Shown piece by piece: positions 12,933 to 52,610 of a DNA stretch of 64,000 bases. A program made the position numbers and the translations under genes. Below the pieces are notes generated by a model. The model saw only the letters and a list, made by a program, of their open reading frames with translations, made no database searches and was not told the origin of the DNA. The stretch lies in contig JASFLY010000003.1 of the NCBI GenBank assembly GCA_050117845.1, positions 24,851 through 88,850 of the forward strand, given 5' to 3'. How positions within the stretch are numbered: the stretch's first letter is position 1; every line of letters starts with the position of its first letter. This DNA comes from Candidatus Zixiibacteriota bacterium. GTDB lineage: Bacteria > RBG-13-66-14 > B26-G2 > WVWN01.

Positions 12933-13750
12933 GCGCCTCCGCCCCCATCGCGATATTCGATTCCGGCGTCGGCGGCCTTACGGTCGCCCGCGAGATAAAC
13001 CGCGCCCTCGAAGGCGAGGAGCTAATTTATCTCGGCGACACCGCCCGCGTCCCCTACGGCTCCAAATCGCCCGCCACCGTACGGCGCTTCGCCGGCGAGT
13101 GCGTGGAGTTCCTACTTCACTTCCGGCCCAAGCTCGTCATCATCGCCTGCAACACGGCCTCCGCGACCGCGCTGGAATTCCTGGACAGGAACGTTGACGT
13201 GCCGATGCTCGGCGTAATCGAGCCCGGCGCGCGCGCCGCCGTGGGCGCGACCGACCTCCGTCGCGTCGGCGTCATCGGCACGCGGGCCACCGTGGCCAGC
13301 GGCGCCTATACCCGGGCCGTGGCCGCCCTCGACGACGCCGTCGAGGTCACGAGCCGGGCGTGCCCGCTCTTCGTCCCCCTCGTCGAGGAGGGTCGGCTGG
13401 GCGGCCCCGTCGTGCGGGAGATAGCCCGGGAGTACCTGGCGCCTCTGCTGGAGCGCGAGATAGACACGCTCATCCTCGGCTGCACCCACTACCCCGCGCT
13501 CAAGCCGGTCCTGGCCGAGGTCGCCGGCGCCGCCGTGACGCTGATAGACTCCGCGGAAACGATGGCCACGACCGTGCGCGAGGTACTCGCGGCCCGCGGC
13601 GAGGCCCGGCCCCGGGCCGAGACTCCGCCCGCGCCCCGCTTCTTCGTAACCGACATTATCGACGAATTCGAACGGGTGGGCGGGATAATCTGGCCCGACA
13701 TGTCGGGGAAGATAGAACGCGTGGAAATCGGGCGCGCGTCCCTGCATTGA
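12929..13750 (+). CDS. murI: Glutamate racemase MurI
   Basis: IAIFDSGVGGLTVAREI…LIYLGDTARVPYGSKS…IIACNTASATAL…LGCTHYP; both catalytic Cys motifs present. Confidence 0.9.
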   Translation: MSASAPIAIFDSGVGGLTVAREINRALEGEELIYLGDTARVPYGSKSPATVRRFAGECVEFLLHFRPKLVIIACNTASATALEFLDRNVDVPMLGVIEPGARAAVGATDLRRVGVIGTRATVASGAYTRAVAALDDAVEVTSRACPLFVPLVEEGRLGGPVVREIAREYLAPLLEREIDTLILGCTHYPALKPVLAEVAGAAVTLIDSAETMATTVREVLAARGEARPRAETPPAPRFFVTDIIDEFERVGGIIWPDMSGKIERVEIGRASLH

Positions 13751-13761
13751 GGCCCCATTTC

Positions 13762-15153
13762 ATGGACGCGAAACGGCCTAAGACGCTGTACTGGTTATGG
13801 GGACTCGGGGCATTCGGTATCGCGGTTACGGCGGCGGCCACGGTCCTCGACCCGCCGTCGCTTCGGCTCGAGATGGCGGCCCCGATAGCGGTATTCGCGG
13901 CCGCGGCGTTCCTCTCCGGGATTTACCAGGTCCGCCTTACCTCGGCCTCCGTATTCTCGCTGTGCGCGGCGGCTTTCGCCGGCGCCGTCCTGGCCTTCGG
14001 TCCCGTCATCGGCGCATGGCTGGCCGCCGGCGTCGACCTCCTGATAACGGTCGCGGACCAGCGGCGCATAAAGCGCGGCCTCGCGGCCCCGGCGCCCGCC
14101 GACATCGCCCCCGGCCGGGTCGTCATCAACACCGGCCTCAACGCGCTGATGTTCCTCGCCGGCGGTTACGCTTATCGGGCGGTGGCCGGAGAAATGCCCG
14201 TAAGCGAGATAACGCCTCTCACCGTGGCGGGCATCGTGGCCTTTCTGGCGGCCCGGATGGTCGTCATCCAGGTCTACCACGCGATAATCGGGGCGGTACG
14301 GGGGACGCTCTCCATTCGTTCCGCGCTCCGCGATATCCGTAGCACCTTGACCTTCGACGTGGCCCTGTACCCCGCGGCCCTCGTGCTGGCGCTGTTGTAC
14401 GCCCACGGGATGCTATGGGGGTTGGCCCTCGCCGGGACGTCGCTCGTCCTAGCGAGCGTTCTCCTCCAGCGTCAAACGCGCCTCGACCTCGTCGTGAAGC
14501 GATACGTATCGCCGGCCAAGTCGTCCGAAATTCTGGACAACCCGTACGAGTTCCTGCGCGCCGAGCGCCGTGATATCAGCATCGTCTTCGCCGACCTCCG
14601 CGGCACCACCGGCATAAGCCAGCGCCTCCCCGCTGCGGACATGCTCGCGCTCTTGAACGCGTTCCACCGGACGATGATAGACGAGGTCATCCGGGCCGGG
14701 GCGACCGTGGACAAGATTATGGGGGACGGCCTGATGATACTGGTGGGCGCGCCGATTAGGGAAGAGAACCACCCGGCGAAGGCGGTGGAACTGGGGATCG
14801 CGCTCCAGCGGGCGTACCGGGGAGTGCGGCGCGACCTCGAAGGCCGGGGCCTCCCGGCTCCGGGTATGGGCGTAGGCGTCGCGACCGGCGAGGTCGTAAT
14901 TGGGAACGTGGGGTCGGAGATGCGGCTGGACTACACGGCCATCGGGGCCGCGGTCAACGTTTCGTCCAAACTCTGCGCCGCCGCGGCCGATACTGAGATC
15001 TTGATTACCGGCGAGTGCCGCCGTCGGGTGGAAGAAGCCATGGCCGCCGGACGGGCGTCGTATTTGAAGGATATCGAATTTGAAGGACTGGCGCCGCTGG
15101 CCGTGGCCGGCCTGGCCGAACCCATAGAGGCCGTCCGGGCCGTGTACGCTTGA
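13762..15153 (+). CDS. Membrane-anchored class III adenylate/guanylate cyclase (N-terminal polytopic domain plus C-terminal CHD cyclase domain)
   Basis: The true start is the ATG at 13762 (MDAKRPKTLYWLWG…); the track ORF from 13360 is an upstream extension overlapping murI. About 6 predicted TM helices, then a cyclase domain (…ISIVFADLRGTTGISQRL…KIMGDGLMILVGAP…VGVATGEVVIGNVGS…). Confidence 0.8.
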   Translation: MDAKRPKTLYWLWGLGAFGIAVTAAATVLDPPSLRLEMAAPIAVFAAAAFLSGIYQVRLTSASVFSLCAAAFAGAVLAFGPVIGAWLAAGVDLLITVADQRRIKRGLAAPAPADIAPGRVVINTGLNALMFLAGGYAYRAVAGEMPVSEITPLTVAGIVAFLAARMVVIQVYHAIIGAVRGTLSIRSALRDIRSTLTFDVALYPAALVLALLYAHGMLWGLALAGTSLVLASVLLQRQTRLDLVVKRYVSPAKSSEILDNPYEFLRAERRDISIVFADLRGTTGISQRLPAADMLALLNAFHRTMIDEVIRAGATVDKIMGDGLMILVGAPIREENHPAKAVELGIALQRAYRGVRRDLEGRGLPAPGMGVGVATGEVVIGNVGSEMRLDYTAIGAAVNVSSKLCAAAADTEILITGECRRRVEEAMAAGRASYLKDIEFEGLAPLAVAGLAEPIEAVRAVYA

Positions 15154-36739: not shown

Positions 36740-37333
36740 TTACGGCATACCGGCGAATTTCTCCAATTCTTCGGCCTCGGCCTGCGAGCCGTACGCCGGG
36801 ACCGTGCCCGGCGCCAGCGCGGAATAAACGTACGCGGTGCCGAGGCTTGTCTTCGCCTCGCCGAGCCGGCCCAAATGATATTGCGCCCGGCCCAGGAGGT
36901 GCAGCGCCGCTATCGCCCGGATGGTCTGCGGATAGGCGGCGACGAGCCGTTCGGTTTGCGACGCGACGGTTTCGTAATCGTCGGCCTGTAAGGCCGTTAC
37001 GATATCCTCGTACAGCGCGTCGAGTTCGGGCGGTTCGGGAGGTATCATTTCGAGGTAACGAGTGGCCTTCTCGTCGTCGCCCCGGGCGTCCTCGAGCTGG
37101 CTCAGGACGTAATAGGCCATAAAGCAACCGTCGTCTTCGGCGGCCGCGCGCTCGAAGTTGTCCCGGGCGCCCTTGACGTCGCCCTCGCTTATAGCGTCGT
37201 ACCCCGCCCAGAAATAAGCCCGGCACTCGGCGTCGGCCGAGATTATTTCGGGGAACGGTAATTCCTCGGCCGCGGCGAAACCGACGGCCAGAAACACGCC
37301 AAGTACGAGAGTCGTTAAGTTTCTCTTCAACAT
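36740..37333 (-). CDS. Secreted TPR-like protein (197 aa), hypothetical, embedded between nuoL and nuoM
   Basis: Signal peptide MLKRNLTTLVLGVFLAVGFAAA, then TPR-like helical repeats; 34 nt from nuoM and 4 nt from the upstream hypothetical. Confidence 0.55.
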   Translation of the reverse strand: MLKRNLTTLVLGVFLAVGFAAAEELPFPEIISADAECRAYFWAGYDAISEGDVKGARDNFERAAAEDDGCFMAYYVLSQLEDARGDDEKATRYLEMIPPEPPELDALYEDIVTALQADDYETVASQTERLVAAYPQTIRAIAALHLLGRAQYHLGRLGEAKTSLGTAYVYSALAPGTVPAYGSQAEAEELEKFAGMP

Positions 37334-37337
37334 ATTC

Positions 37338-37910
37338 TTATAGGGCTTTAACTCGGAAAAAAAACGCCGTTTCGCCCTCTCCCGTTTCGGCCGCTTTCAC
37401 GTCGAAGCCGTCGAACGACCAATCCTCGTCCTCTTTCGCGGCCGGAACCACGACGTGAGTCGCTCCGCGGGAAGCCGCCGCCGCCTCGAACCCGGCCATC
37501 AGCGCCTTGAGATCGTTATCGCCGACGCACGGGGCCGCCGCCGCGGCGAGGAGGTAAACCGGCCTTCCCTCTATTCCGGCCCCCTCAAGCACCGCCGGGG
37601 CCCAACCCCCGGTCGGCATATGCGCTCCCCCGAAAAGCCTCGGTCCCGGGGAGCGCCAGGGACGCCGTCGCTTCAGCCACTCCAACGGGGCGCCGGCGTC
37701 GGTCGTTCCGCAAATGACGCCCACGACTTCCGAACCCTCAAGCCCCGCCGTTCCCACGGTGAAGTCGCGATTGGCGTACGCGTCGTAAAACCGCTTAAGT
37801 ACGCCTCGGCCGCCCTTCCCCCGGTAACACCAAACCCGCCCTTCGCCATGGAGCTCCGCGGCTCCCCGGAGATGCGACCGATTTAGCGCGACCAGCCTCA
37901 TCTCCACCAT
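37338..37910 (-). CDS. Hypothetical protein (190 aa), possibly GNAT-like fold; embedded between nuoL and nuoM
   Basis: The ATG start abuts the nuoL stop, and the gene is tightly packed in the operon. The composition is partly Arg/Gly-rich, so the call rests mainly on operon packing. Confidence 0.4.
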   Translation of the reverse strand: MVEMRLVALNRSHLRGAAELHGEGRVWCYRGKGGRGVLKRFYDAYANRDFTVGTAGLEGSEVVGVICGTTDAGAPLEWLKRRRPWRSPGPRLFGGAHMPTGGWAPAVLEGAGIEGRPVYLLAAAAAPCVGDNDLKALMAGFEAAAASRGATHVVVPAAKEDEDWSFDGFDVKAAETGEGETAFFFRVKAL

Positions 37911-39845: not shown

Positions 39846-40454
39846 TTATTCGTTCTCCAGGGGGGCCTCGGCCCCGCCTTCGGGGGTATTGTTATCCTGT
39901 CCCGGATGGATTCTTAAAGACCGTTCAAACGACCTTATCGGTTCCGAGGTATCGCCCTCCGGCGCGATTGGGCGGAAAACCTCGACCCGATATAGCGTTC
40001 CGTTAACCGTCAAGAATAACGCGGTTACCCGGCGCGGCTCCTCCCCCTTCGTTATATAATCCACTCGAACGCCGTCCTGAGCGCCTATCCGGGCGAGGTC
40101 TTCTTCGGTTAAAAGCCCGGCCCGGGCCTCGAACGCTTTATCTATCCCTCGGCGCCGCTGGTACAGGCCGGCCGCTATAACCGGCGTCTCGTACGTCACG
40201 TTTCGGGCGGTGATTAAGAACTCCAGCCCCGCGTAAGGCCCGTCGGCCCAAAATAAACGGAGAACGCGGGTCGTACTACCCGGCGCCGGAGCCGGCGTTT
40301 CCTCTTCGTAACCGGCCGGCACGTCGAACGAAACGCCCAGATCGTCGCTTCGGTACGGTGGGGTTTGTTCCACGGCGTACGCCGGGGCGCAAGGCGCCGT
40401 AACCGCACACAAAGCCGCGGCCGCCGCGGCCGTCTTTATCCACCCACCCGTCAA
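39846..40454 (-). CDS. Secreted hypothetical protein (202 aa) embedded between nuoK and nuoL
   Basis: Signal peptide MTGGWIKTAAAAAALCAVTAPCAPAYA; 3-nt gaps to nuoK and to nuoL; no domain recognised. Confidence 0.5.
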   Translation of the reverse strand: MTGGWIKTAAAAAALCAVTAPCAPAYAVEQTPPYRSDDLGVSFDVPAGYEEETPAPAPGSTTRVLRLFWADGPYAGLEFLITARNVTYETPVIAAGLYQRRRGIDKAFEARAGLLTEEDLARIGAQDGVRVDYITKGEEPRRVTALFLTVNGTLYRVEVFRPIAPEGDTSEPIRSFERSLRIHPGQDNNTPEGGAEAPLENE

Positions 40455-40769: not shown

Positions 40770-41278
40770 TATTTCCGCTCCTCCTTACGGGCCAGGACGA
40801 TAGCGCCGATGAGAGCGCCCAGAAGCAAGAGAGAGATTACCTCGAAAGGCAACAGGTACGTGGAGAGGAGGGCCGAGGCCAACGCCTCGATGGCCCCCTC
40901 GCCGTCCGGTACGGCCGCCAACGGCGGCAGGTCCACCTTCCACATAACCAGGGCCGACGCGGCCGCGAGCGCCAGGAGGACCGGTATCGCGGGCAAAATC
41001 GCCCGGGTGTACTGCTTGACCCGGCGGGAAGTTATCCGCTGGGTCAACATTACGGCGAAAAGTATCAGCACGGCGATGGCGCCCACGTAAATCAGAACCT
41101 GGACGCCCGCCAGGAACTCCGCCCCCAAAAGGACGAAGAGCGAGGCCACCGCGCACAGCGCCAGTATCAAACTCAGGCCGGCGTGGAAAAGGTTGCGCAG
41201 GAACAGCACGCCCAGCGCGCTCAGGAGCGCGACGCCCGCGACGCCGTAAAAAGCTATTATATAAATCCAATCGGTCAT
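40769..41278 (-). CDS. nuoJ: NADH-quinone oxidoreductase subunit J
   Basis: 169 aa polytopic protein with NuoJ-like sequence. Confidence 0.85.
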   Translation of the reverse strand: MTDWIYIIAFYGVAGVALLSALGVLFLRNLFHAGLSLILALCAVASLFVLLGAEFLAGVQVLIYVGAIAVLILFAVMLTQRITSRRVKQYTRAILPAIPVLLALAAASALVMWKVDLPPLAAVPDGEGAIEALASALLSTYLLPFEVISLLLLGALIGAIVLARKEERK

Positions 41279-41299
41279 TTTCTCTATACCCGGGCGGTT

Positions 41300-41830
41300 T
41301 TAAACGTCGTCGGGTTCCATCCATTCCACTACGTAACGGTTAACTTCGGCGTTTTCGGCTCGATTGTCCAGGACCGTAACTCGCACGTTTAAGGCCCCGA
41401 GACCCGTGAAGCCCGCCGTTAAAACGCCCCGAATGAATTCGACGCTTCTAATAATCGAGGAATCTTTAATAACCAAACGGCCCGGCCTGTATTCTTCGAC
41501 GACGTATTCCCCGGTCCCCGGTCCCCGCACGAAATGGGGATATACGCTCGCTACCTTCTCGGCGAAAGCCCCCGTCGACGTTATACCCAATTCCCTAAGT
41601 TCGGACGTTACTACGTTGGTCAACTCGTTGCCCATAATAACCAACGCCTGCGGCGATATATGTTCGAGTAAGTATTCTAACGTCGCGACGTACGGCTCCC
41701 CTTCATACCACCCGTTCGGGTCGAACTCCCTTTCGAAATATCCCCCCAGGTCGGGCCTTACGATATCCGCGATATGGGGAAATACGTTTTTTATACCCTG
41801 GTATAAAGCGCCCCGGACTTCGATTGCCAT
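41300..41830 (-). CDS. Paralog 1 of a tandem family of ~175-aa cytoplasmic proteins of unknown function
   Basis: MAIEVRGALYQGIKNVFPHIADIVRPDLGGYFEREFDPNGWYEGEPYVATLEYLLEHISPQALVIMGNELTNV…FAEKVASVYPHFVRGPGTGEYVVEEYRPGRLVIKD…LNVRVTVLDNRAENAEVNRYVVEWMEPDDV. The ATG is directly preceded by GGAGG; the track extends the ORF to a GTG at 41881. Confidence 0.6.
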   Translation of the reverse strand: MAIEVRGALYQGIKNVFPHIADIVRPDLGGYFEREFDPNGWYEGEPYVATLEYLLEHISPQALVIMGNELTNVVTSELRELGITSTGAFAEKVASVYPHFVRGPGTGEYVVEEYRPGRLVIKDSSIIRSVEFIRGVLTAGFTGLGALNVRVTVLDNRAENAEVNRYVVEWMEPDDV

Positions 41831-41973
41831 CCTCCTCGCTGCGTGTTTACCGTAACCGTCCCCCCGCCGGAACCGGCCCACGCCGACGTACGCCCGGGCT
41901 ATTAAAATATCACTTGTTACACAATACTACCTCCCGCCTCTATCCGCGCGTTACCGTAAAAATCTCGACGCTA

Positions 41974-42504
41974 TTAATCGTCGTCGGTTTCCAGCCACTC
42001 CACGAGGTACCTATTCGCTTCCGCACCCGAAGCCCGGTTGTCCAGCAGGATAACCCGCACGTTCAAAGCCCCGAAAACGGAAAAAGTCGCCGCCAGAACT
42101 CCCCTCGTAAATTCGGCGTTCGAAATAATCGAAGACTCCCTCACCACCATACGGCCCGGACGATATTCCTCAACGAGCCATTCACCTGTTTCGGGGCCCC
42201 TTACGAATCGGGGATAGACCTGACCTACTTTTTCCGCAAACGTTCTGATCGACGTTATCCCGAGGTGCTTGAGTTCCTCGGCTATTATGCTAGTTAATTC
42301 CTTCCCCAAAATAACTATCGCTTGAGGCGATATGCGTTAGTATAAATACTCCAACGCCGCTATGTAATACTCCCCTTCATACCACGCGGCCGGGTTGATT
42401 TCACCCTCGAAATGTTTTCCCAACTCGGGCGGTAAAATTTCCGCGATATCGGGAAAAACATTCTTCACACTCTGTAGCAAAACCCCCAAGACCTCGATAG
42501 CGGG
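41974..42504 (-). pseudogene. Paralog 2 of the same family, with an in-frame TAA
   Basis: The C-terminal 111 aa are a track ORF (MGKELTSIIAEEL…YLVEWLETDDD). The upstream in-frame translation reads …PAIEVLGVLLQSVKNVFPDIAEILPPELGKHFEGEINPAAWYEGEYYIAALEYLY*RISPQAIVILGKELTS…, where the conserved LEH is replaced by Y-stop-R (TAA at ~42337–42339). No ATG precedes IEV. Confidence 0.5.
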
Positions 42505-42649
42505 CCACCTCGCTGTTCGTTTACTTCTTCATCCGCTCCAGCAAGTATCGGCATGTCGCACCGGCTCAAGCCCAGCCGTAACACCCCCTATACGCTTCCC
42601 TATCACCCCCCGTGTTTCCCGCCGCCGATTCCGCCCCCACCGAACGCTT

Positions 42650-43180
42650 TTACTTCCCGTCGGCCTCGATCCATTCCACCAGCAACCGGTTATACTCCGC
42701 GCCCTTCGCCCTTTCGTTAAGAACCGTGATCCGGATATTTACGGCGCCGAACACGTTAAACAAAGCTTTTAATACACCCAGTACGAAACTAATATTCCAG
42801 ACTATTCCGGTTTCCCTTACTACCATTCTTCCGGGACGGTACTCCTCCGGAAACCACCCGCCGGCCCCCGGGCCCCGTACGAATTGGGGATAAAGTTCGG
42901 CCACTTTCTCCGCGAAGTCCCGCGTCGTTTTAATCCCCGTCGCCCACATCATCGCCTTCCCCACTTCGGTCAACTCGTTCCCCAACAACACCATTGCCTG
43001 CGGCGAAATGTGTTCCAGCAAGTATTCCACCGCCGCTACGTACGGTTCACCCTCATACCACGCGGCCGGGTCGATTTCTCTTTCGAAGTATTCCCCGAGT
43101 TCCGGCGGCACTATTTCCGCGATATGAGGGAATACGTTCTTTATTGCCTGGTAGAATACGCCCCGTACTTCGATTTCTGC
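42650..43180 (-). CDS. Paralog 3 of the same family; the conserved N-terminus lacks a canonical start codon
   Basis: Full in-frame similarity runs from AEIEVRGVFYQAIKNVFPHIAEIVPPELGEYFEREIDPAAWYEGEPYVAAVEYLLEHISPQAMVLLGNELTEV… to …EYNRLLVEWIEADGK. The track ORF starts at an internal GTG (VPPELG). The paralog-4 stop lies immediately upstream, and an aaggggg SD-like element sits 5 nt before an ATC codon. Confidence 0.5.
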   Translation of the reverse strand, partial: AEIEVRGVFYQAIKNVFPHIAEIVPPELGEYFEREIDPAAWYEGEPYVAAVEYLLEHISPQAMVLLGNELTEVGKAMMWATGIKTTRDFAEKVAELYPQFVRGPGAGGWFPEEYRPGRMVVRETGIVWNISFVLGVLKALFNVFGAVNIRITVLNERAKGAEYNRLLVEWIEADGK

Positions 43181-43195
43181 CCCCTTTCGCGTGCG

Positions 43196-43720
43196 CTACG
43201 CCATTATCCACTCCATCAGGTAACGGTCGGCCCCGCCTTCCCCGCTCCGCGTATCGATCATTTCGACGCGGATGTTATAAGCTCCCGTAGATTCCAAAGC
43301 CCGCCGCACTATTCCGACGCAAATATCGGGCTGTGCGAAGTCGCCGTCGTAACGCAATATCGACCGGCCTTCGCGGTATTCCTCCAACGTCCAGCCGCCG
43401 CCCTCTCCCCTAACGAATTCGCGGTATACGTCGTTAACCTTTTCCATGAAGTTACGCGGCGTATTAATCCCCAACTCCCGCAACTGCGACTCGAAAAGGT
43501 CGATAAGTCTCGTGCCCACCAGGGCGTTAACGGTCGGGGACATGTGCTTAATTAAATACTCCCGCGCTCGCAGGTACAAGTCCGCCGAATACCAACCGTC
43601 GGCCTTTACTTCCCGGAACAACTTGGCGAGCTCCGGGTCGACGACGTCCCCTAGATGCGGGAATACCCCTTTCACCATAAGGTATAAGACTCCGCGGACT
43701 TCGATTTTGGGCGTCATCAT
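43196..43720 (-). CDS. Paralog 4 (most divergent) of the same family
   Basis: MMTPKIEVRGVLYLMVKGVFPHLGDVVDPELAKLFREVKADGWYSADLYLRAREYLIKHMSPTVNALVGTRLIDL…FMEKVNDVYREFVRGEGGGWTLEEYREGRSILRYD…YNIRVEMIDTRSGEGGADRYLMEWIMA; RBS ggggag 8 nt upstream of ATGATG. Confidence 0.6.
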   Translation of the reverse strand: MMTPKIEVRGVLYLMVKGVFPHLGDVVDPELAKLFREVKADGWYSADLYLRAREYLIKHMSPTVNALVGTRLIDLFESQLRELGINTPRNFMEKVNDVYREFVRGEGGGWTLEEYREGRSILRYDGDFAQPDICVGIVRRALESTGAYNIRVEMIDTRSGEGGADRYLMEWIMA

Positions 43721-43814
43721 CGCGATAGCTCCCCAGGTCGATAGTACCGACGCACGATACCAGGCCGCCTCGCCTCTCCGCTCCTATTCCCGCTCCGGCG
43801 TCCCCCCTTACCCC

Positions 43815-48009: not shown

Positions 48010-48038
48010 TTGACCCGTGCGGCCCCTCGTGCTAATAT
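48010..48038 (+). promoter_or_regulatory. Consensus-like sigma70 promoter (TTGACC-17-TAATAT) overlapping the annotated 5' end of the radical SAM gene
   Basis: ggaTTGACCcgtgcggcccctcgtgcTAATATacgatg. The predicted TSS at ~48045 is adjacent to an in-frame GTG at 48047; the track GTG at 48017 lies inside the spacer. Confidence 0.5.
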
Positions 48039-49195
48039 ACGATGGCGTGTCCGACATCCTACATTATGTAAAAAAAGTCGCCCGGCGCTCGCCGGGCGAA
48101 GTCCTCCGGGAGGCGGCCAAACGAAGCCGCGTCGCCCTAAAACTGGAGCGGCCCCTAGGCCGCGGCCGGGCCCTCTCGCCGTACGCCGTCAGCTTCTGGG
48201 TCACCCGGCGCTGCAACCTCCGGTGCGATATGTGTTGGGTCGAGCAGTCCCGCGAACTCGAGGGCGACGGCTACCTCCTGTCGGAAAACGAGCTGAATTT
48301 GTCCGAGTTGACCGGCGTGGTGGACGACCTGGCGCGGCGCTGGCGACCCCGCATCGGCATCACCGGCGGCGAGCCCTTCGTCCGCCGCGACACGCTCGAC
48401 TTCATCCGGCACGTCAAAAACCGGGGCCTACGCTGCGGCGTCAACACCAACGGGACCTTCCTCGCCCGCGACGCCGAAGAGCTGATCGAGGCCGGCCTCG
48501 ACAGCATCATGGTCTCCGTGGACGGTCCGCCCGCCGTCCACGACCAACAGCGCCGCGTCCCCGGCACCTTCGTAAAAACGAAGGAAGGCATCGACGCCCT
48601 GCTGGCCGCCCGGGGCCGGGCCGGCGCCGGCCGGCCCTACGTCAAACTCACCTGCACCGTCACGAACGCCAACGTCGACGCGTTGGCCGACATACCCGCG
48701 CTCTTCACCGACCTCCCGCTCGACGAGTTCACGTTCCAGCATCTCTGGTTCACCGAGGCCGAGACCGCCCGGGCCCAACGAAAACTCTTCACCGAAATCT
48801 TCGGCCAGGACACGACGTACCTGGAAGGCTTCGTCTCGCCGGAAATCCCGCCGGTGGACGTGGGTCGGCTCCGGGGCGCGGTCGAGGCCGTCGCGAGAAA
48901 GAGCTGGCCCTTCCCCGTTAACTTCTATCCGGCGCTGGGGCCGGACGAACTGGGCCCCTTCTACGAGGACCCGCGGCACGCGTTCCGCCGGTCCTGTTTC
49001 TCCCGCTGGCTCCGCGTGGACGTACTGCCCGACGGCACCGTCACGCCCTGCCTCGGCCTGGCGGTGGGAAACGTACGCGAAAAGCCGATAAACGAAATAT
49101 GGAACGGCCCGACTTTCCGCCGCTTCCGCCGCGAGCTGGGCCGAAGAGGAACCTTTCCCGGCTGCGAACGATGTTGCGGTTTATTCAGTGATTAA
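48017..49195 (+). CDS. Radical SAM protein with C-terminal SPASM/twitch Cys-rich domain (true start probably the GTG at ~48047)
   Basis: CxxxCxxC motif (…FWVTRRCNLRCDMCWVE…), a GGEP-like motif (…IGITGGEPFVRRD…) and a C-terminal Cys cluster (…VTPCLGLAVGNV…FPGCERCCGLF). Confidence 0.8.
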   Translation: MRPLVLIYDGVSDILHYVKKVARRSPGEVLREAAKRSRVALKLERPLGRGRALSPYAVSFWVTRRCNLRCDMCWVEQSRELEGDGYLLSENELNLSELTGVVDDLARRWRPRIGITGGEPFVRRDTLDFIRHVKNRGLRCGVNTNGTFLARDAEELIEAGLDSIMVSVDGPPAVHDQQRRVPGTFVKTKEGIDALLAARGRAGAGRPYVKLTCTVTNANVDALADIPALFTDLPLDEFTFQHLWFTEAETARAQRKLFTEIFGQDTTYLEGFVSPEIPPVDVGRLRGAVEAVARKSWPFPVNFYPALGPDELGPFYEDPRHAFRRSCFSRWLRVDVLPDGTVTPCLGLAVGNVREKPINEIWNGPTFRRFRRELGRRGTFPGCERCCGLFSD

Positions 49196-49210
49196 CGCCT
49201 AAAAGACGGC

Positions 49211-49239
49211 TTGAAGCGAACGGCGGGCCGTGTTAATAT
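49211..49239 (+). promoter_or_regulatory. Sigma70-type promoter (TTGAAG-17-TAATAT) for the first GT-C-like gene
   Basis: ggcTTGAAGcgaacggcgggccgtgtTAATATcc, with the same TAATAT -10 as the rSAM promoter; ~70-nt leader to the ATG at 49318. Confidence 0.45.
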
Positions 49240-49317
49240 CCTCGCCTAACTCCGGCCTCCAAGTCCCCCGGGCCGGCCGAATACCCAACCCTTTTACCGC
49301 TCATTACCGCCGAAGTT

Positions 49318-50928
49318 ATGGACGATAACAAACGCGAACGTAACGACCGCATACGCTTATGGGCCGGGCGCCTGGCGCCGGCCGGAGCGTTCGCCTTCAA
49401 GCTGGCCGTATCGCTGGGCTTCCTCGTATATTACGTCCGGCACTTTAAACGGATAATGTACATCGCCGACGGCCCCGGCCGCGGCATCGAGGCGTACACT
49501 CTCGCCTACGCCGGGTTCGACCTCTTCCCCCGGCACCAGTTCCCGCCGCTGCCTCTTTGGATATGGTCGGGCCTGTTGAAGATTTGGCCGGACATTTACT
49601 TCACCGGGACGGCGATGAACATCGTCGCCGGCTGCGGCATCGCCCTCTTCCTTTACCTCCTGGGGCGGCGCCTGGCCGGGCCGTTGGCGGGAGCGGTGGC
49701 GGTAATCGCGTTCACCTTCTCTCCCGTTCACCACAACCTGACGGTCACGATGGGCATGGCGGAGCCGGTCTTTTACTTCTGGCTCGTGGCGGGCGTGTTC
49801 TTCGCGGCCCGGGCGGAGGCCGGCCTGCGGGGCGCGGCGGGCGCGGCCTTCTGCTTCGCCGCCGCGGCGCTCAGCCGCTATGAGGGTACGGCCTTCCTCA
49901 TCCTGTACTCGGCCTATCGCCTCTTCCGCCACCGGCCCCGGACGGTCCTGGCCTGGGTCCTCTACTTTATCCCGCTCGCCGTCGCGGGCGTCTTCGTGGC
50001 CCACAAGGGCCTCCAGCCCAGCCACGCGGGTTTGTGGCCGGCGCTCGCCGGCGTCCGCGCCGACACCTCGGCGGTCCTTTCCAACCCGACGTGGTACCGG
50101 CGCCTGGGTTACGGCGTATACCGTTTCCTCTTCGACGGCCGCGCCACGGCCGTACTGGCCTTCGCCGGTGCGATTCTCGTCTTCCGAAAAAAGTGGCTGC
50201 GCGCCGACCGCTTCATGATCTGGCTGGCGTGGGCGCTTATCTTCACCGCCCTCACGGCTATCGCCGTCATAGTCGGCCTGGGCTTCTGCCCGGAGCGCTA
50301 CTTCGCCACGCCGCTCATGCTCATCTTCCCGTTCGCCGGCCTGGCCGTGGTGGAACTCGTCCAGTTCGTAAAACCGCCCGCGAAGGCCGTCAAGGCCGTC
50401 GTCGTGGGCGCGATCCTAATCACGTCGCTCTACGTCACGGCGCGATGGGATTACGTGATAATCAAGCCCGGATACGGCTTCCCCGGCCCCTGCAACACCC
50501 GACCCGCCTTCGCCACCGAGACGGCCCTTCGGCTCCGGGAACTCTGGCGCGGCGGCCGGCTCGGCCCCCAGGAAGTCGTGCTGATAGAAATCGGCGAACC
50601 GGGTTCGACCGGCTCGTGGCGTTTCGAGGAATACCCGTTGCGGGCCTTCAGCGACCACCCCCTGCACTTCCTACGGGAGACGGAATCCGAGCTGACGCCG
50701 GAGCTCGATTACCTCGTACCGCTCCTGCGCGAGAACGACATGCGTATCGCGATCGTTTGTAGCGATACGAACCGGGAGCTTCTGCGCCGGCACTACGACG
50801 AAATCCTCCCGGACGCCGTCATATACGACAACCCGACGCAGACCATAGTGGTCCTACGCGAGAGGTGGGAAAAGATACCCGACTTCGCGTCCCGTATTTG
50901 CCCGGACGAAGTCACGGTATACGAATAG
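49318..50928 (+). CDS. Polytopic membrane protein, putative GT-C-fold glycosyltransferase (ArnT/PMT-like), copy 1
   Basis: 536 aa. About 11 predicted TM helices fill the first ~350 aa, then a soluble C-terminal ~180-aa domain. It is paralogous to the next gene, with shared blocks (…YIADGPGRGIEAYTLAYAGFDLF…FSPVHHNLTVTMGMAEP…ALSRYEGTAFLILYSAYRLFRHRPR…GYGFPGPC…). Confidence 0.55.
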   Translation: MDDNKRERNDRIRLWAGRLAPAGAFAFKLAVSLGFLVYYVRHFKRIMYIADGPGRGIEAYTLAYAGFDLFPRHQFPPLPLWIWSGLLKIWPDIYFTGTAMNIVAGCGIALFLYLLGRRLAGPLAGAVAVIAFTFSPVHHNLTVTMGMAEPVFYFWLVAGVFFAARAEAGLRGAAGAAFCFAAAALSRYEGTAFLILYSAYRLFRHRPRTVLAWVLYFIPLAVAGVFVAHKGLQPSHAGLWPALAGVRADTSAVLSNPTWYRRLGYGVYRFLFDGRATAVLAFAGAILVFRKKWLRADRFMIWLAWALIFTALTAIAVIVGLGFCPERYFATPLMLIFPFAGLAVVELVQFVKPPAKAVKAVVVGAILITSLYVTARWDYVIIKPGYGFPGPCNTRPAFATETALRLRELWRGGRLGPQEVVLIEIGEPGSTGSWRFEEYPLRAFSDHPLHFLRETESELTPELDYLVPLLRENDMRIAIVCSDTNRELLRRHYDEILPDAVIYDNPTQTIVVLRERWEKIPDFASRICPDEVTVYE

Positions 50929-51005
50929 CGCGCCCCCGCCGGGAACGGCGGCGGGCACGGCACAAGTAGGAAGGGATCGTAGTTACGCACACCGAGAGGG
51001 AAGCG

Positions 51006-52610
51006 GTGCATTCCCGGAAGAAAACGGAGTGGTTGGGTCGGCTCGCGCCGTGGGGATTCTTCGCCCTTAAAATCCTCGTATCCATCTATTCCCTCCACCG
51101 GTACATGCCCCACTACCTAAGGTTGACCTATATCGCCGACGGGCCGGCCCGCGGCATAGAGGCCTTCAACCTGGCGTACGGCGACTTCGGCGTTTTTAAA
51201 ACCTACCAATTCCTGCCCATGCAGATATGGCTCTGGGCGGGCCTCCTTAAAATATATCCCGACGTTTATTGGACAGGGACGGCGCTGAACGTCGCGTTCG
51301 CCGCCGGCACGACGGTCCTCCTTTACCTCCTGGGGCGCGAACTCGCGGGGCCGGCGGCCGGGGCGCTGGCGGCCGTCCTCTTTATCTTTTCGCCCGTGCA
51401 CCATTGCCTGACCATCTCGGAGGGGATGGCGGAAAGCATATTCTTCTTCTGGAACGCCGCCGGCATATACGCCGCGGCCCGGGCGGCGCGGGAAGGACGC
51501 GGCGAGTGGGTGGCCGGCCTCTGCTTCGGCGCCGCCGCCCTGACGCGCTACGAGAGCGCGGCCCTGCTCATCCTCTACTCGGCCTACCGGCTGTTCCGAG
51601 CGCGGCCGCGGAGCGCCGGCGGGTGGCTGCTCTGGGCGGCGCCTTTGGCGGCCGTGGCCGTTGTACTGGGCCACAAGGCCATGCTCGCCGCGCACGTGGG
51701 CGTTCGTCACGACCTCGCCGGCGTCAAGGGCGACAGCGAACTCGTACTGCCCGGGGCGTTGTGGTACGAGCGGGTCGCCTACGGCCTGACGCGCGTCTGG
51801 CGGGACGGCCGGGTGTTCGGCCTCCTGGGCGCCGCCGGCTTCTTCCTCGTTTGGCTGCGCGGCATACGCAACGAAAGCCGGCTCCTGATATGGGGCGGCC
51901 TCGCCGCCCTGCTGGTCGGCGTATCGACCGTATTCGCGGTAGTCGGCCTGGGCCTGGGGCCGGAGCGGCACTTCTCCATCATACTGATGTTCTTGTTCCC
52001 CTTCGCCGGCCTTACCGTCACGGAGGCGTGGCGCCGGGCGCGGGGCCTCGCGTTAAAAATCGTCCTGATCGTATTATTGGCGGCCGCCGGCGCTTACACC
52101 GTTTATTTCGACTCGGCCATCAAGGACTACGGTTACGGCTTCCCGGGGCCATGTTACTCCTGCATGACCGTGGACGCGGAGCTGGCCCTCAAGCTCCGGG
52201 ACCTCTGGCGCTCGGGGGAACTCGGGCCGGACGAGATAATATATATGGAACAAAACGACGGCAATTTCAGCAACTACCCGATCCAGGCGTACAGCAACCG
52301 GCCGCGGAACTTCTACGTCAGCCCCGCCTACCAGTCGGAACGGGACCTCTGGTACCTCGATTATATAATGGAGACGAACGGGTTCCGCGTCGCCATATTC
52401 GTGAACGCGGTTACCCGCCACCAGTTGAAATCCTTCTATCGGGCCCTGGGAAAGAAGTACGTCATCTACGAAACGCCGGCCCACTCGCTCGTCGTGCGGC
52501 GCGACGGATGGCCGCGCGGCCTCCCCGATTTCCGGTCGGCCCGCCACCCCCGGCAATCCCGCGTAGTCGACTACGGCTCGCCCGACGCCGTAATAAAAAG
52601 GACGCCCTGA
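51006..52610 (+). CDS. Paralog of the preceding putative GT-C-fold membrane glycosyltransferase, copy 2
   Basis: 534 aa with the same architecture and blocks (…YIADGPARGIEAFNLAYGDFGVF…FSPVHHCLTISEGMAES…ALTRYESAALLILYSAYRLFRARPR…GYGFPGPC…). Confidence 0.55.
   Translation: MHSRKKTEWLGRLAPWGFFALKILVSIYSLHRYMPHYLRLTYIADGPARGIEAFNLAYGDFGVFKTYQFLPMQIWLWAGLLKIYPDVYWTGTALNVAFAAGTTVLLYLLGRELAGPAAGALAAVLFIFSPVHHCLTISEGMAESIFFFWNAAGIYAAARAAREGRGEWVAGLCFGAAALTRYESAALLILYSAYRLFRARPRSAGGWLLWAAPLAAVAVVLGHKAMLAAHVGVRHDLAGVKGDSELVLPGALWYERVAYGLTRVWRDGRVFGLLGAAGFFLVWLRGIRNESRLLIWGGLAALLVGVSTVFAVVGLGLGPERHFSIILMFLFPFAGLTVTEAWRRARGLALKIVLIVLLAAAGAYTVYFDSAIKDYGYGFPGPCYSCMTVDAELALKLRDLWRSGELGPDEIIYMEQNDGNFSNYPIQAYSNRPRNFYVSPAYQSERDLWYLDYIMETNGFRVAIFVNAVTRHQLKSFYRALGKKYVIYETPAHSLVVRRDGWPRGLPDFRSARHPRQSRVVDYGSPDAVIKRTP

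Follow-up and report, generated by a model that had tools for sequence, protein, structure and literature searches.

A predicted H-NOX-fold protein family without haem ligands lies between nuoI and nuoJ in the complex I operon of uncultured Zixibacteria-like bacteria

Introduction

Complex-I-like enzymes with 11 subunits and no NADH-oxidising module are found in many anaerobes. The stretch of DNA analysed here, called the window, comprises 64,000 nucleotides (nt) of contig JASFLY010000003.1 from a Candidatus Zixiibacteriota metagenome-assembled genome (MAG). It holds a complex I (nuo) operon in which a tandem array of paralogous genes, each for a protein of ~175 amino acids (aa), stands between nuoI and nuoJ. 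What are these proteins, and what do they do at this junction? The question reaches beyond the locus: which donor feeds 11-subunit complex-I-like enzymes with electrons, and whether further subunits belong to them, is acknowledged to be open (PMC11238625).

An earlier note on this DNA described the array as an insertion between nuoI and nuoJ, likened its products to the DUF2378/TIGR02265 family and to H-NOX/V4R-type domains, and raised the possibility of gas sensing. We report that the family is tied to this site in a small clade of uncultured bacteria and that its predicted fold is that of H-NOX domains, without their haem ligands. Tentatively, we read the proteins as accessory factors of the enzyme.

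Results

The paralog array

The nuo operon lies on the minus strand of the window, in the order nuoA-B-C-D-H-I, the array, nuoJ-K, a 202-aa open reading frame (ORF), nuoL, a 190-aa ORF, a 197-aa TPR ORF and nuoM-N. This operon contains no nuoE, nuoF or nuoG and is therefore of the 11-subunit complex I type. The array and the two genes that flank it are listed below.

44276-43815, minus strand: nuoI, 153 aa, two 4Fe-4S motifs, Pfam Fer4 families; directly upstream of the array
43720-43196, minus strand: paralog A, 174 aa, ATG start with GGGGAG 8 nt upstream; member of the 'A-type' clade and the most divergent copy
43174-42650, minus strand: paralog B, 174 aa if read from an AUC start
42498-41974, minus strand: paralog C, Shine-Dalgarno (SD) sequence GAGGTGG and ATC; in-frame TAA at 42339-42337
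41830-41300, minus strand: paralog D, 176 aa, ATG directly abutting GAGGAGG; 21 nt upstream of nuoJ
41278-40769, minus strand: nuoJ, Pfam Oxidored_q3; directly downstream of the array

The nuoI product scored 110.7 bits against the NCBIfam NuoI model TIGR01971, just under the cut-off of 113.05. Paralogs B, C and D were 61–63% identical to one another, and A was 39–40% identical to each of them (40% for A versus D, BLASTP E = 2e-45). At the DNA level, a 213-nt unit occurred three times at a spacing of 674 and 676 nt, with 70–79% identity. The paralogy of the four units is far beyond chance. The array (A, B, pseudo-C, D) is shown to have expanded locally in tandem, and D occupies the nuoJ-proximal position, which is that of the single copy in relatives.

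The earlier note had counted four same-strand paralogs between nuoI and nuoJ. Their location and paralogy stand, as do the conserved sequence blocks it quoted, but only three copies are intact, C carrying a TAA. The gaps, which it had put at 0–145 nt, measured 94 (nuoI-A), 21 (A-B), 151 (B-C), 143 (C-D) and 21 nt (D-nuoJ).

Conservation of the site in relatives

A family gene was preceded directly by nuoI in nine loci (window, L004, L005, L006, L007, L011, L012, L014 and L019) and followed directly by nuoJ in seven (window, L004, L006, L007, L011, L013 and L019). All close relatives with a readable flank adjoined nuoI and/or nuoJ, on about a dozen independent contigs carrying one to four copies. 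We show that a small clade of uncultured Zixibacteria-like bacteria has one or more family genes between nuoI and nuoJ of an 11-subunit, NuoEFG-less operon. Gene orders were as follows (A and B, copy types; numerals, copies by position; lengths, other ORFs).

L004: nuoH-nuoI-A-B-nuoJ
L005: nuoI-A-B
L013: A-B-nuoJ
L014: nuoH-nuoI-A
L003: A-B-X
L006 (GTDB representative MAG): nuoH-nuoI-(53-aa A remnant)-X-nuoJ-nuoK-198 aa-nuoL-185 aa-155 aa-nuoM-nuoN
L007: nuoH-46 aa-nuoI-1-2-3-4-nuoJ-nuoK-197 aa-nuoL
L011: nuoH-nuoI-1-nuoJ
L012: nuoC-nuoD-PMT_2-nuoH-nuoI-1-2
L019/L020: two PMT_2 genes, nuoA-nuoB-nuoC-nuoD-nuoH-nuoI-(one copy)-nuoJ-nuoK-200 aa-nuoL-186 aa-199 aa-nuoM-nuoN-M23-ThiDN

With its single copy, L019 reproduces the macro-synteny of the window: PMT_2 genes, nuoA-N with three accessory sites, an M23 peptidase gene and ThiDN. 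On a neighbour-joining tree the A-types formed their own clade, and C and D of the window were sister to the B clade. The four copies of L007 clustered together and had an identical C-terminus; the expansion in L007 was therefore independent. In L006 (3918–4177), an A-type gene ~100 nt past nuoI is cut to its C-terminal 53 codons, a second and independent decay of a copy. Divergence among the copies of relatives was considerable (35–60% identity), and NuoI and NuoH were much more conserved. Two distant homologues added little: P0018 (E ~1e-10) had a non-nuo neighbourhood, and P0020 was present on short, uninformative contigs only.

The insertion between nuoI and nuoJ is thus borne out by the relatives, which also lack nuoI-nuoJ adjacency and have one to four copies at the same site. 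No mobile-element scars or flanking repeats were found at the array, where the sole repeats are the paralogs themselves, and the large ORFs scanned in the flanks were housekeeping genes. A recent passenger insertion or mobile element, considered as the origin of the array, is refuted by the conserved synteny, the absence of element scars and the housekeeping flanks, because the adjacency of the family to nuoI and nuoJ holds on about a dozen independent contigs.

Predicted fold and absence of haem ligands

AlphaFold2 models were obtained for D (pLDDT 89.3, pTM 0.81) and A (pLDDT 85.2, pTM 0.77). In Foldseek searches the top 43 matches were all H-NOX domains, with TM-scores up to 0.72. The next matches were the VirS N-terminal domain, TRAPP Bet3-type subunits, the V4R sensory domains of DmpR/PoxR, YslB, BcsD and MJ1460. 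The models show a complete predicted H-NOX fold, with an N-terminal helical and a C-terminal alpha/beta subdomain. The best PDB sequence match of the family profile was the H-NOX domain of soluble guanylate cyclase (sGC) beta1 (E = 0.016), and the N-terminal R-G-x-x-Y resembles the M-x-G start of H-NOX proteins.

H-NOX domains ligate haem through a proximal His on helix alpha-F (His105 in sGC beta1, His102 in Tt H-NOX) and bind the haem propionates with a Y-x-S-x-R motif. Across 18 family sequences, the invariant columns were Gly, Trp, Tyr, Leu, Ser and Arg only; no His was invariant or nearly invariant, and no Cys was invariant. In the hmmsearch alignment to residues 131–186 of sGC beta1, Y135, S137 and R139 stood opposite non-conserved E/D/Y, G/S and V/I/F, respectively. 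Alignment with hhalign to the sGC beta1 H-NOX domain was used solely for the register of the C-terminal half. It placed His105 opposite an Ala/Asn column (probability 4%; the sGC sequence used agrees with the profile alignment) and gave an alternative register for YxSxR of K, gap, S (probability 4%). Judged by these residues, the paralogs have an H-NOX fold but are not H-NOX haem sensors: canonical haem binding is excluded because there is no proximal His, no YxSxR motif and no match to the HNOB model (PF07700).

The isoelectric point (pI) was 4.5–5.3 for most members, with two exceptions among relatives (5.96 and 7.97). The paralog products are shown by their predicted properties to be soluble, acidic proteins of ~175 aa.

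Family assignment and rarity

The Pfam model DUF2378 (PF09536), with a gathering cut-off of 22.2 bits, matched paralog A at 23.6 bits, residues 14–171 aligning to positions 11–176 of the 177 in the model. The scores of D, C and B (18.5, 16.4 and 12.5 bits) were all below the cut-off. Among relatives, P0012 exceeded it (22.8), P0010, P0013 and P0011 remained below (21.6, 20.7 and 20.0), and P0009 gave no match to PF09536. A precomputed PF09536 match existed for two relatives. For TIGR02265 (cut-off 25), the best paralog was A with 13 bits (E = 0.067), and B and D gave no match. HNOB gave no match at E <= 1 for any paralog, and Pfam V4R (PF02830) gave none for the paralogs. Two distant outgroup matches, P0025 and P0038, came near V4R (22.7–24.5 bits, cut-off 31). 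Membership of the paralogs in V4R was rejected, as they have neither a Pfam match nor the Cys motif (B, C and D have no Cys, and the one Cys of A is non-conserved). DUF2378, HNOB and V4R belong to one Pfam clan. The profile scores show the family as an apparent distant, nuo-specific offshoot of DUF2378.

The likeness to DUF2378/TIGR02265 put forward in the earlier note accordingly survives in part, as a borderline match to DUF2378 (23.6 versus 22.2 bits for A), but not for TIGR02265 (13 versus 25 bits). Of the resemblance to H-NOX/V4R that it suggested, the H-NOX fold is retained by AlphaFold2 and Foldseek, but V4R is not and the haem residues are absent; the HNOB and V4R models that it singled out for searching gave no match. 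Gas sensing via haem finds no support, as no His or Cys is invariant and the YxSxR positions are non-conserved.

The family is extremely rare. Among 5.8 billion clusters, two outside relatives each for D and A were returned by a k-mer search. Profile searches yielded 39 matches at E <= 1e-3 and 10 at E <= 1e-10 among 1.84 billion representatives, and 16 at E <= 1e-10 in the 5.8-billion-cluster set. A metagenome pattern scan with alignment A2 added two further loci only. Because pattern-based scans of genomes and metagenomes are insensitive, the true distribution may be wider. One strong match among the representatives, P0014 (4195 aa; 22 matched stretches, E = 3.9e-36), was rejected as spurious, being a PKD-like tandem-repeat protein whose weak repeats were summed. 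Distant members of the superfamily were seen in unrelated contexts, namely a GH57 neighbourhood and an MCP fusion.

Non-canonical starts and copy integrity

Neither B nor C has an ATG, GTG or TTG at the conserved N-terminus. Their start regions read as follows.

43186-43172, minus strand: paralog B start region; SD AAGGGGG at 43186-43180, 5-nt spacer, ATC at 43174-43172
42510-42496, minus strand: paralog C start region; SD GAGGTGG, then ATC

A strong SD sequence lay 5–6 nt before an ATC or ATA, the Ile codon of 'IEVRG', in all six B-type genes inspected (window and L002–L006) and in C of the window. The SD variants were GAGGAG(G), AAGGAGG, AAGGGGG and GAGGTGG. The L013 translation, LRRLE-IEVRG in frame past the stop of A, is consistent with this arrangement. 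The single-copy orthologues P0046 and P0047 have ATG at precisely the AUC-start codon, giving 'MEVRG'. Over the first 22 codons of B, from ATC to the first canonical start, seven synonymous and no nonsynonymous changes were counted against L005, and seven and one against L002. Because SD and ATC/ATA are conserved, single-copy orthologues have ATG and the changes against L005 are synonymous only, the comparison indicates that paralog B is translated from AUC. B-type genes would offer a clean case, found in nature, of AUC/AUA conserved as the start codon.

The AUC starts imply that the public gene calls for B (153 aa, from GTG at 43111) and C (111 aa) are truncated. The NCBI call for A, PVH29_03160, is also shortened: at 160 aa it spans 92% of the 174-aa ORF, so that the conserved strand and helix at the N-terminus ('IEVRGVLYL') are probably missing.

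Two other ways of starting B were discarded. Fusion of A to B by stop-codon readthrough was considered because the window, L006 and L013 have B in frame with A past its TAG. It was rejected because the frame of B differs in L002–L005 and the spacer is 37, 39 or 40 nt; no start other than an SD followed by AUC/AUA suits every locus. An upstream GTG/ATG within the 'EWM' codons of A, across this spacer, is out of frame in the window and L006.

In paralog C, the TAA replaces the Glu of 'EYLLEHISPQ', a residue found in all relatives, and EVRG has Leu where Arg is nearly invariant; at the other positions conserved in the family, C is unchanged. Paralog C is a probable recent pseudogene, which makes the array three intact genes and one dead copy. 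Sequencing error as the source of the TAA is not supported, as an independently built Logan assembly (L001), which may share the same reads, was 100% identical over the array, TAA included.

Composition and expression-related signals

GC content at third codon positions (GC3) was 0.82–0.90 for the core nuo genes and 0.77 for nuoI. It fell to 0.71 in A, 0.66 in B, 0.62 in D and 0.59 in C, the lowest value in the region. The paralogs of L019 (0.68) and L007 (0.60–0.66) contrasted with the core nuo genes in the same way, so that low GC3 is a stable property and not the mark of a recent un-ameliorated import. Overall GC at 41250–43750 of the window was 0.51–0.57 versus 0.60–0.66, and the plus-strand GC skew went down to -0.37, the mRNA strand being G-rich; the intergenic spacers of the array were rich in G-runs (GGGGG).

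The array genes share one strand, are separated by gaps of 21–151 nt and have their own SD per copy. Only weak hairpins were seen inside the array, such as that at 41983–41966 after C. A region-wide scan was uninformative, with 23 terminator-like sites versus 11 expected and promoter-like sites at chance level, and no Rfam families were found in the window. The combination of low GC3, AUC/AUA starts and copy decay points to lower, non-stoichiometric expression. Together with the changes in copy number, these features argue against a core stoichiometric subunit.

Other accessory sites and neighbouring genes

The remaining annotated features of the operon are given below.

47581-47000, minus strand: nuoB
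46442-45327, minus strand: nuoD, above the cut-off of NCBIfam NuoD
45309-44281, minus strand: nuoH, above the cut-off of NCBIfam NuoH
40769-40458, minus strand: nuoK
39846-40454, minus strand: 202-aa ORF between nuoK and nuoL, with a signal-peptide-like N-terminus (MTGGWIKTAAAAAALCAVTAPCAPAYA)
39842-37911, minus strand: nuoL
36740-37910, minus strand: 190-aa ORF and 197-aa TPR protein between nuoL and nuoM
36705-35221, minus strand: nuoM
35207-33687, minus strand: nuoN

The 202-aa ORF had no Pfam, NCBIfam or PADLOC match; counterparts of 197–200 aa occupy the same site in L006, L007 and L019. The 197-aa TPR protein has a signal-like N-terminus, and the 190-aa ORF had no family match. Both have counterparts in the same positions in L006 and L019. 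The nuo operon holds three conserved accessory sites (I-J, K-L and L-M), not one.

Genes for PMT_2-type (ArnT/PMT-like) membrane glycosyltransferases were repeatedly linked to the nuo operon. Two are divergent from nuoA in the window (48017–52610, plus strand, with a radical SAM/SPASM gene) and in L019 (2102–5383), and one is inserted between nuoD and nuoH in L012 (1695–3287). A 46-aa mini-ORF with a single transmembrane segment (MTPAPTGLLGLGMWELVIIGLGIMALVAVAVCILLLAVSRQRKKRG) lies between nuoH and nuoI in L007 (1049–1189) and is absent from the window. A search for anti-phage defence genes gave no PADLOC match. H-NOX domains classically partner with cyclases. A gene of the window 26 kb from the array (13360–15153, plus strand) encodes a class III adenylate/guanylate cyclase catalytic domain within a protein of 597 aa, and nothing links this protein to the array.

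Discussion

How a haem-less H-NOX-fold family might serve complex I

A plausible, if tentative, answer to the question raised by this locus is that the paralogs serve the NuoEFG-less enzyme as a dedicated accessory factor in the cytoplasm, working by direct contact, with a non-haem ligand that may set their state. The proteins would contact the partner encoded by a neighbouring gene directly, as stand-alone H-NOX/V4R-fold proteins do. The likely contact surface would be the peripheral arm (NuoI/B/C/D), which NuoEFG otherwise covers. The ligand, probably hydrophobic or anionic, would occupy the central pocket. Poorly adapted codons, a second copy that starts with AUC/AUA, and copies that vary in number and decay suggest low-abundance, losable proteins, a modulator or helper rather than a fixed structural or electron-carrying subunit. 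The paralogs are unlikely to carry electrons themselves, since they have no conserved Cys or His.

Several considerations weigh against such a factor. Everything beyond fold and synteny is inference, and the position in the operon is equally compatible with a true subunit or an assembly factor. Amino-acid composition or relaxed selection, rather than expression level, could account for the lower GC3, the conserved Arg, Glu and Trp could be purely structural, and the clade is narrow and uncultured.

A more specific version is doubtful: the proteins may sit on the NuoI face that NuoEFG holds in the canonical enzyme and there gate electron entry through a small non-haem ligand, or select the donor. 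If true, a sensor-fold protein would for the first time be found as a built-in part of respiratory complex I, and the lineage would have its own replacement for the N-module.

It is possible, though we consider it rather improbable, that the products are one or more stoichiometric supernumerary subunits of the peripheral arm, which cap the bare NuoI face and dock a donor such as ferredoxin, in possible analogy to NdhS/NdhV/NdhO of cyanobacterial NDH-1. The position straight after nuoI is strict in every lineage examined, and the open question of the donor and possible extra subunits of 11-subunit enzymes (PMC11238625) suits such a role. A stoichiometric subunit sits poorly, however, with a copy number that ranges from one to four by independent duplications, with copies that decay, with AUC/AUA starts on the second copy and with the lowest GC3 of the operon. 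The mostly acidic pI (4.5–5.3) is unfavourable for docking acidic ferredoxins, and redox-ligand residues are absent.

It is unlikely that the proteins help to assemble the Q-module, or the region where the peripheral and membrane arms meet, as factors or chaperones that act transiently and are absent from the mature enzyme. Such a role would reconcile a gene within the operon with low-expression signatures, and the other non-subunit genes of the operon (the secreted 202-aa ORF, the 190-aa ORF and the TPR protein) suggest a biogenesis toolkit. The fold matches in the H-NOX/V4R/DUF2378 superfamily nevertheless include no chaperone, and fast divergence (35–60% identity, with NuoI and NuoH far more conserved) combined with tandem diversification is unusual for chaperones.

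Quite unlikely is an unrelated small-ligand-binding protein that hitch-hikes in the operon, either as a neutral passenger or as a sensor using the nuo promoter. GC and GC3 below those of flanking genes, the dispensability of individual copies and the unrelated contexts of distant superfamily members (GH57 neighbourhood, MCP fusion) fit a passenger. Yet the same site is occupied on about a dozen independent contigs despite 35–60% identity, and the subfamily was found nowhere else. Mobile-element scars and flanking repeats are lacking at the array, and the low GC3 is stable across lineages, so that no recent un-ameliorated import is indicated. Finally, a canonical haem-containing H-NOX gas (NO/O2) sensor tuning respiration is very unlikely, since the full-length H-NOX fold, the all-H-NOX top structural matches and the H-NOX-like R-G-x-x-Y start are set against the lack of an invariant His (Ala or Asn opposite sGC His105), non-conserved YxSxR positions and no PF07700 match at E <= 1.

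Significance

The fold superfamily and the concept of lineage-specific accessory proteins of complex I are already known. What the searchable literature lacks is an H-NOX-fold family that is haem-less and restricted to the site between nuoI and nuoJ; searches of that literature for DUF2378, TIGR02265, H-NOX together with nuo, and nuoI/nuoJ insertions returned nothing relevant. The family occurs essentially only inside an operon of the 11-subunit type, where it follows immediately on nuoI, whose product is the electron-entry subunit. The H-NOX/V4R/DUF2378 superfamily gains a haem-less branch tied to respiration. Its reach is limited by the narrow uncultured clade, the absence of redox-ligand residues and a function inferred from fold and synteny. 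The enzyme, in turn, gains a concrete, clonable candidate partner, which is soluble, ~175 aa in length and confidently modelled.

Comparison with known systems

TIGR02265/PF09536 is a Myxococcus paralogous family of unknown function. The paralogs resemble it in length (~175 aa), in the near-full alignment of A to the model and in the occurrence of multiple paralogues in both families. DUF2378 was the only sequence family to score at all, and its scores straddled the cut-off (12.5–23.6 versus 22.2 bits). We know of no exclusive nuoI-nuoJ context for DUF2378.

Sequence identity to H-NOX domains (S. oneidensis 4u99, Nostoc 6mx5/2o09 and sGC beta1) was 8–14%, and the paralogs differ from them in lacking the proximal His and YxSxR. 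Alignments with V4R domains (DmpR/PoxR, MJ1460) and the VirS N-terminal domain span 115–130 residues only; V4R domains are shorter and do not have the helical half at the N-terminus of the paralogs, which are also without a conserved Cys motif. For the TRAPP Bet3 family and BcsD, scaffolding members of the same fold, the C-terminal alpha/beta part alone aligns, over ~115–128 residues, and there is no sequence relationship to the paralogs.

Other comparisons concern the enzyme rather than the fold. In Campylobacter, a NuoEFG-less complex I is fitted to its donor by additional soluble proteins, NuoX/NuoY. Neither they nor NdhS/NdhV/NdhO have a detectable relationship to the paralogs, as judged without direct sequence or fold comparison. 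Both sets are proven subunits, whereas the paralogs are tied to their enzyme by synteny alone. As functional analogues, NdhS/NdhV/NdhO, which are NDH-1 subunits specific to oxygenic photosynthesis, illustrate how extra soluble proteins fit a NuoEFG-less complex I to its own donor, and additional subunits do have a role in cyanobacterial NDH-1 (PMC11238625).

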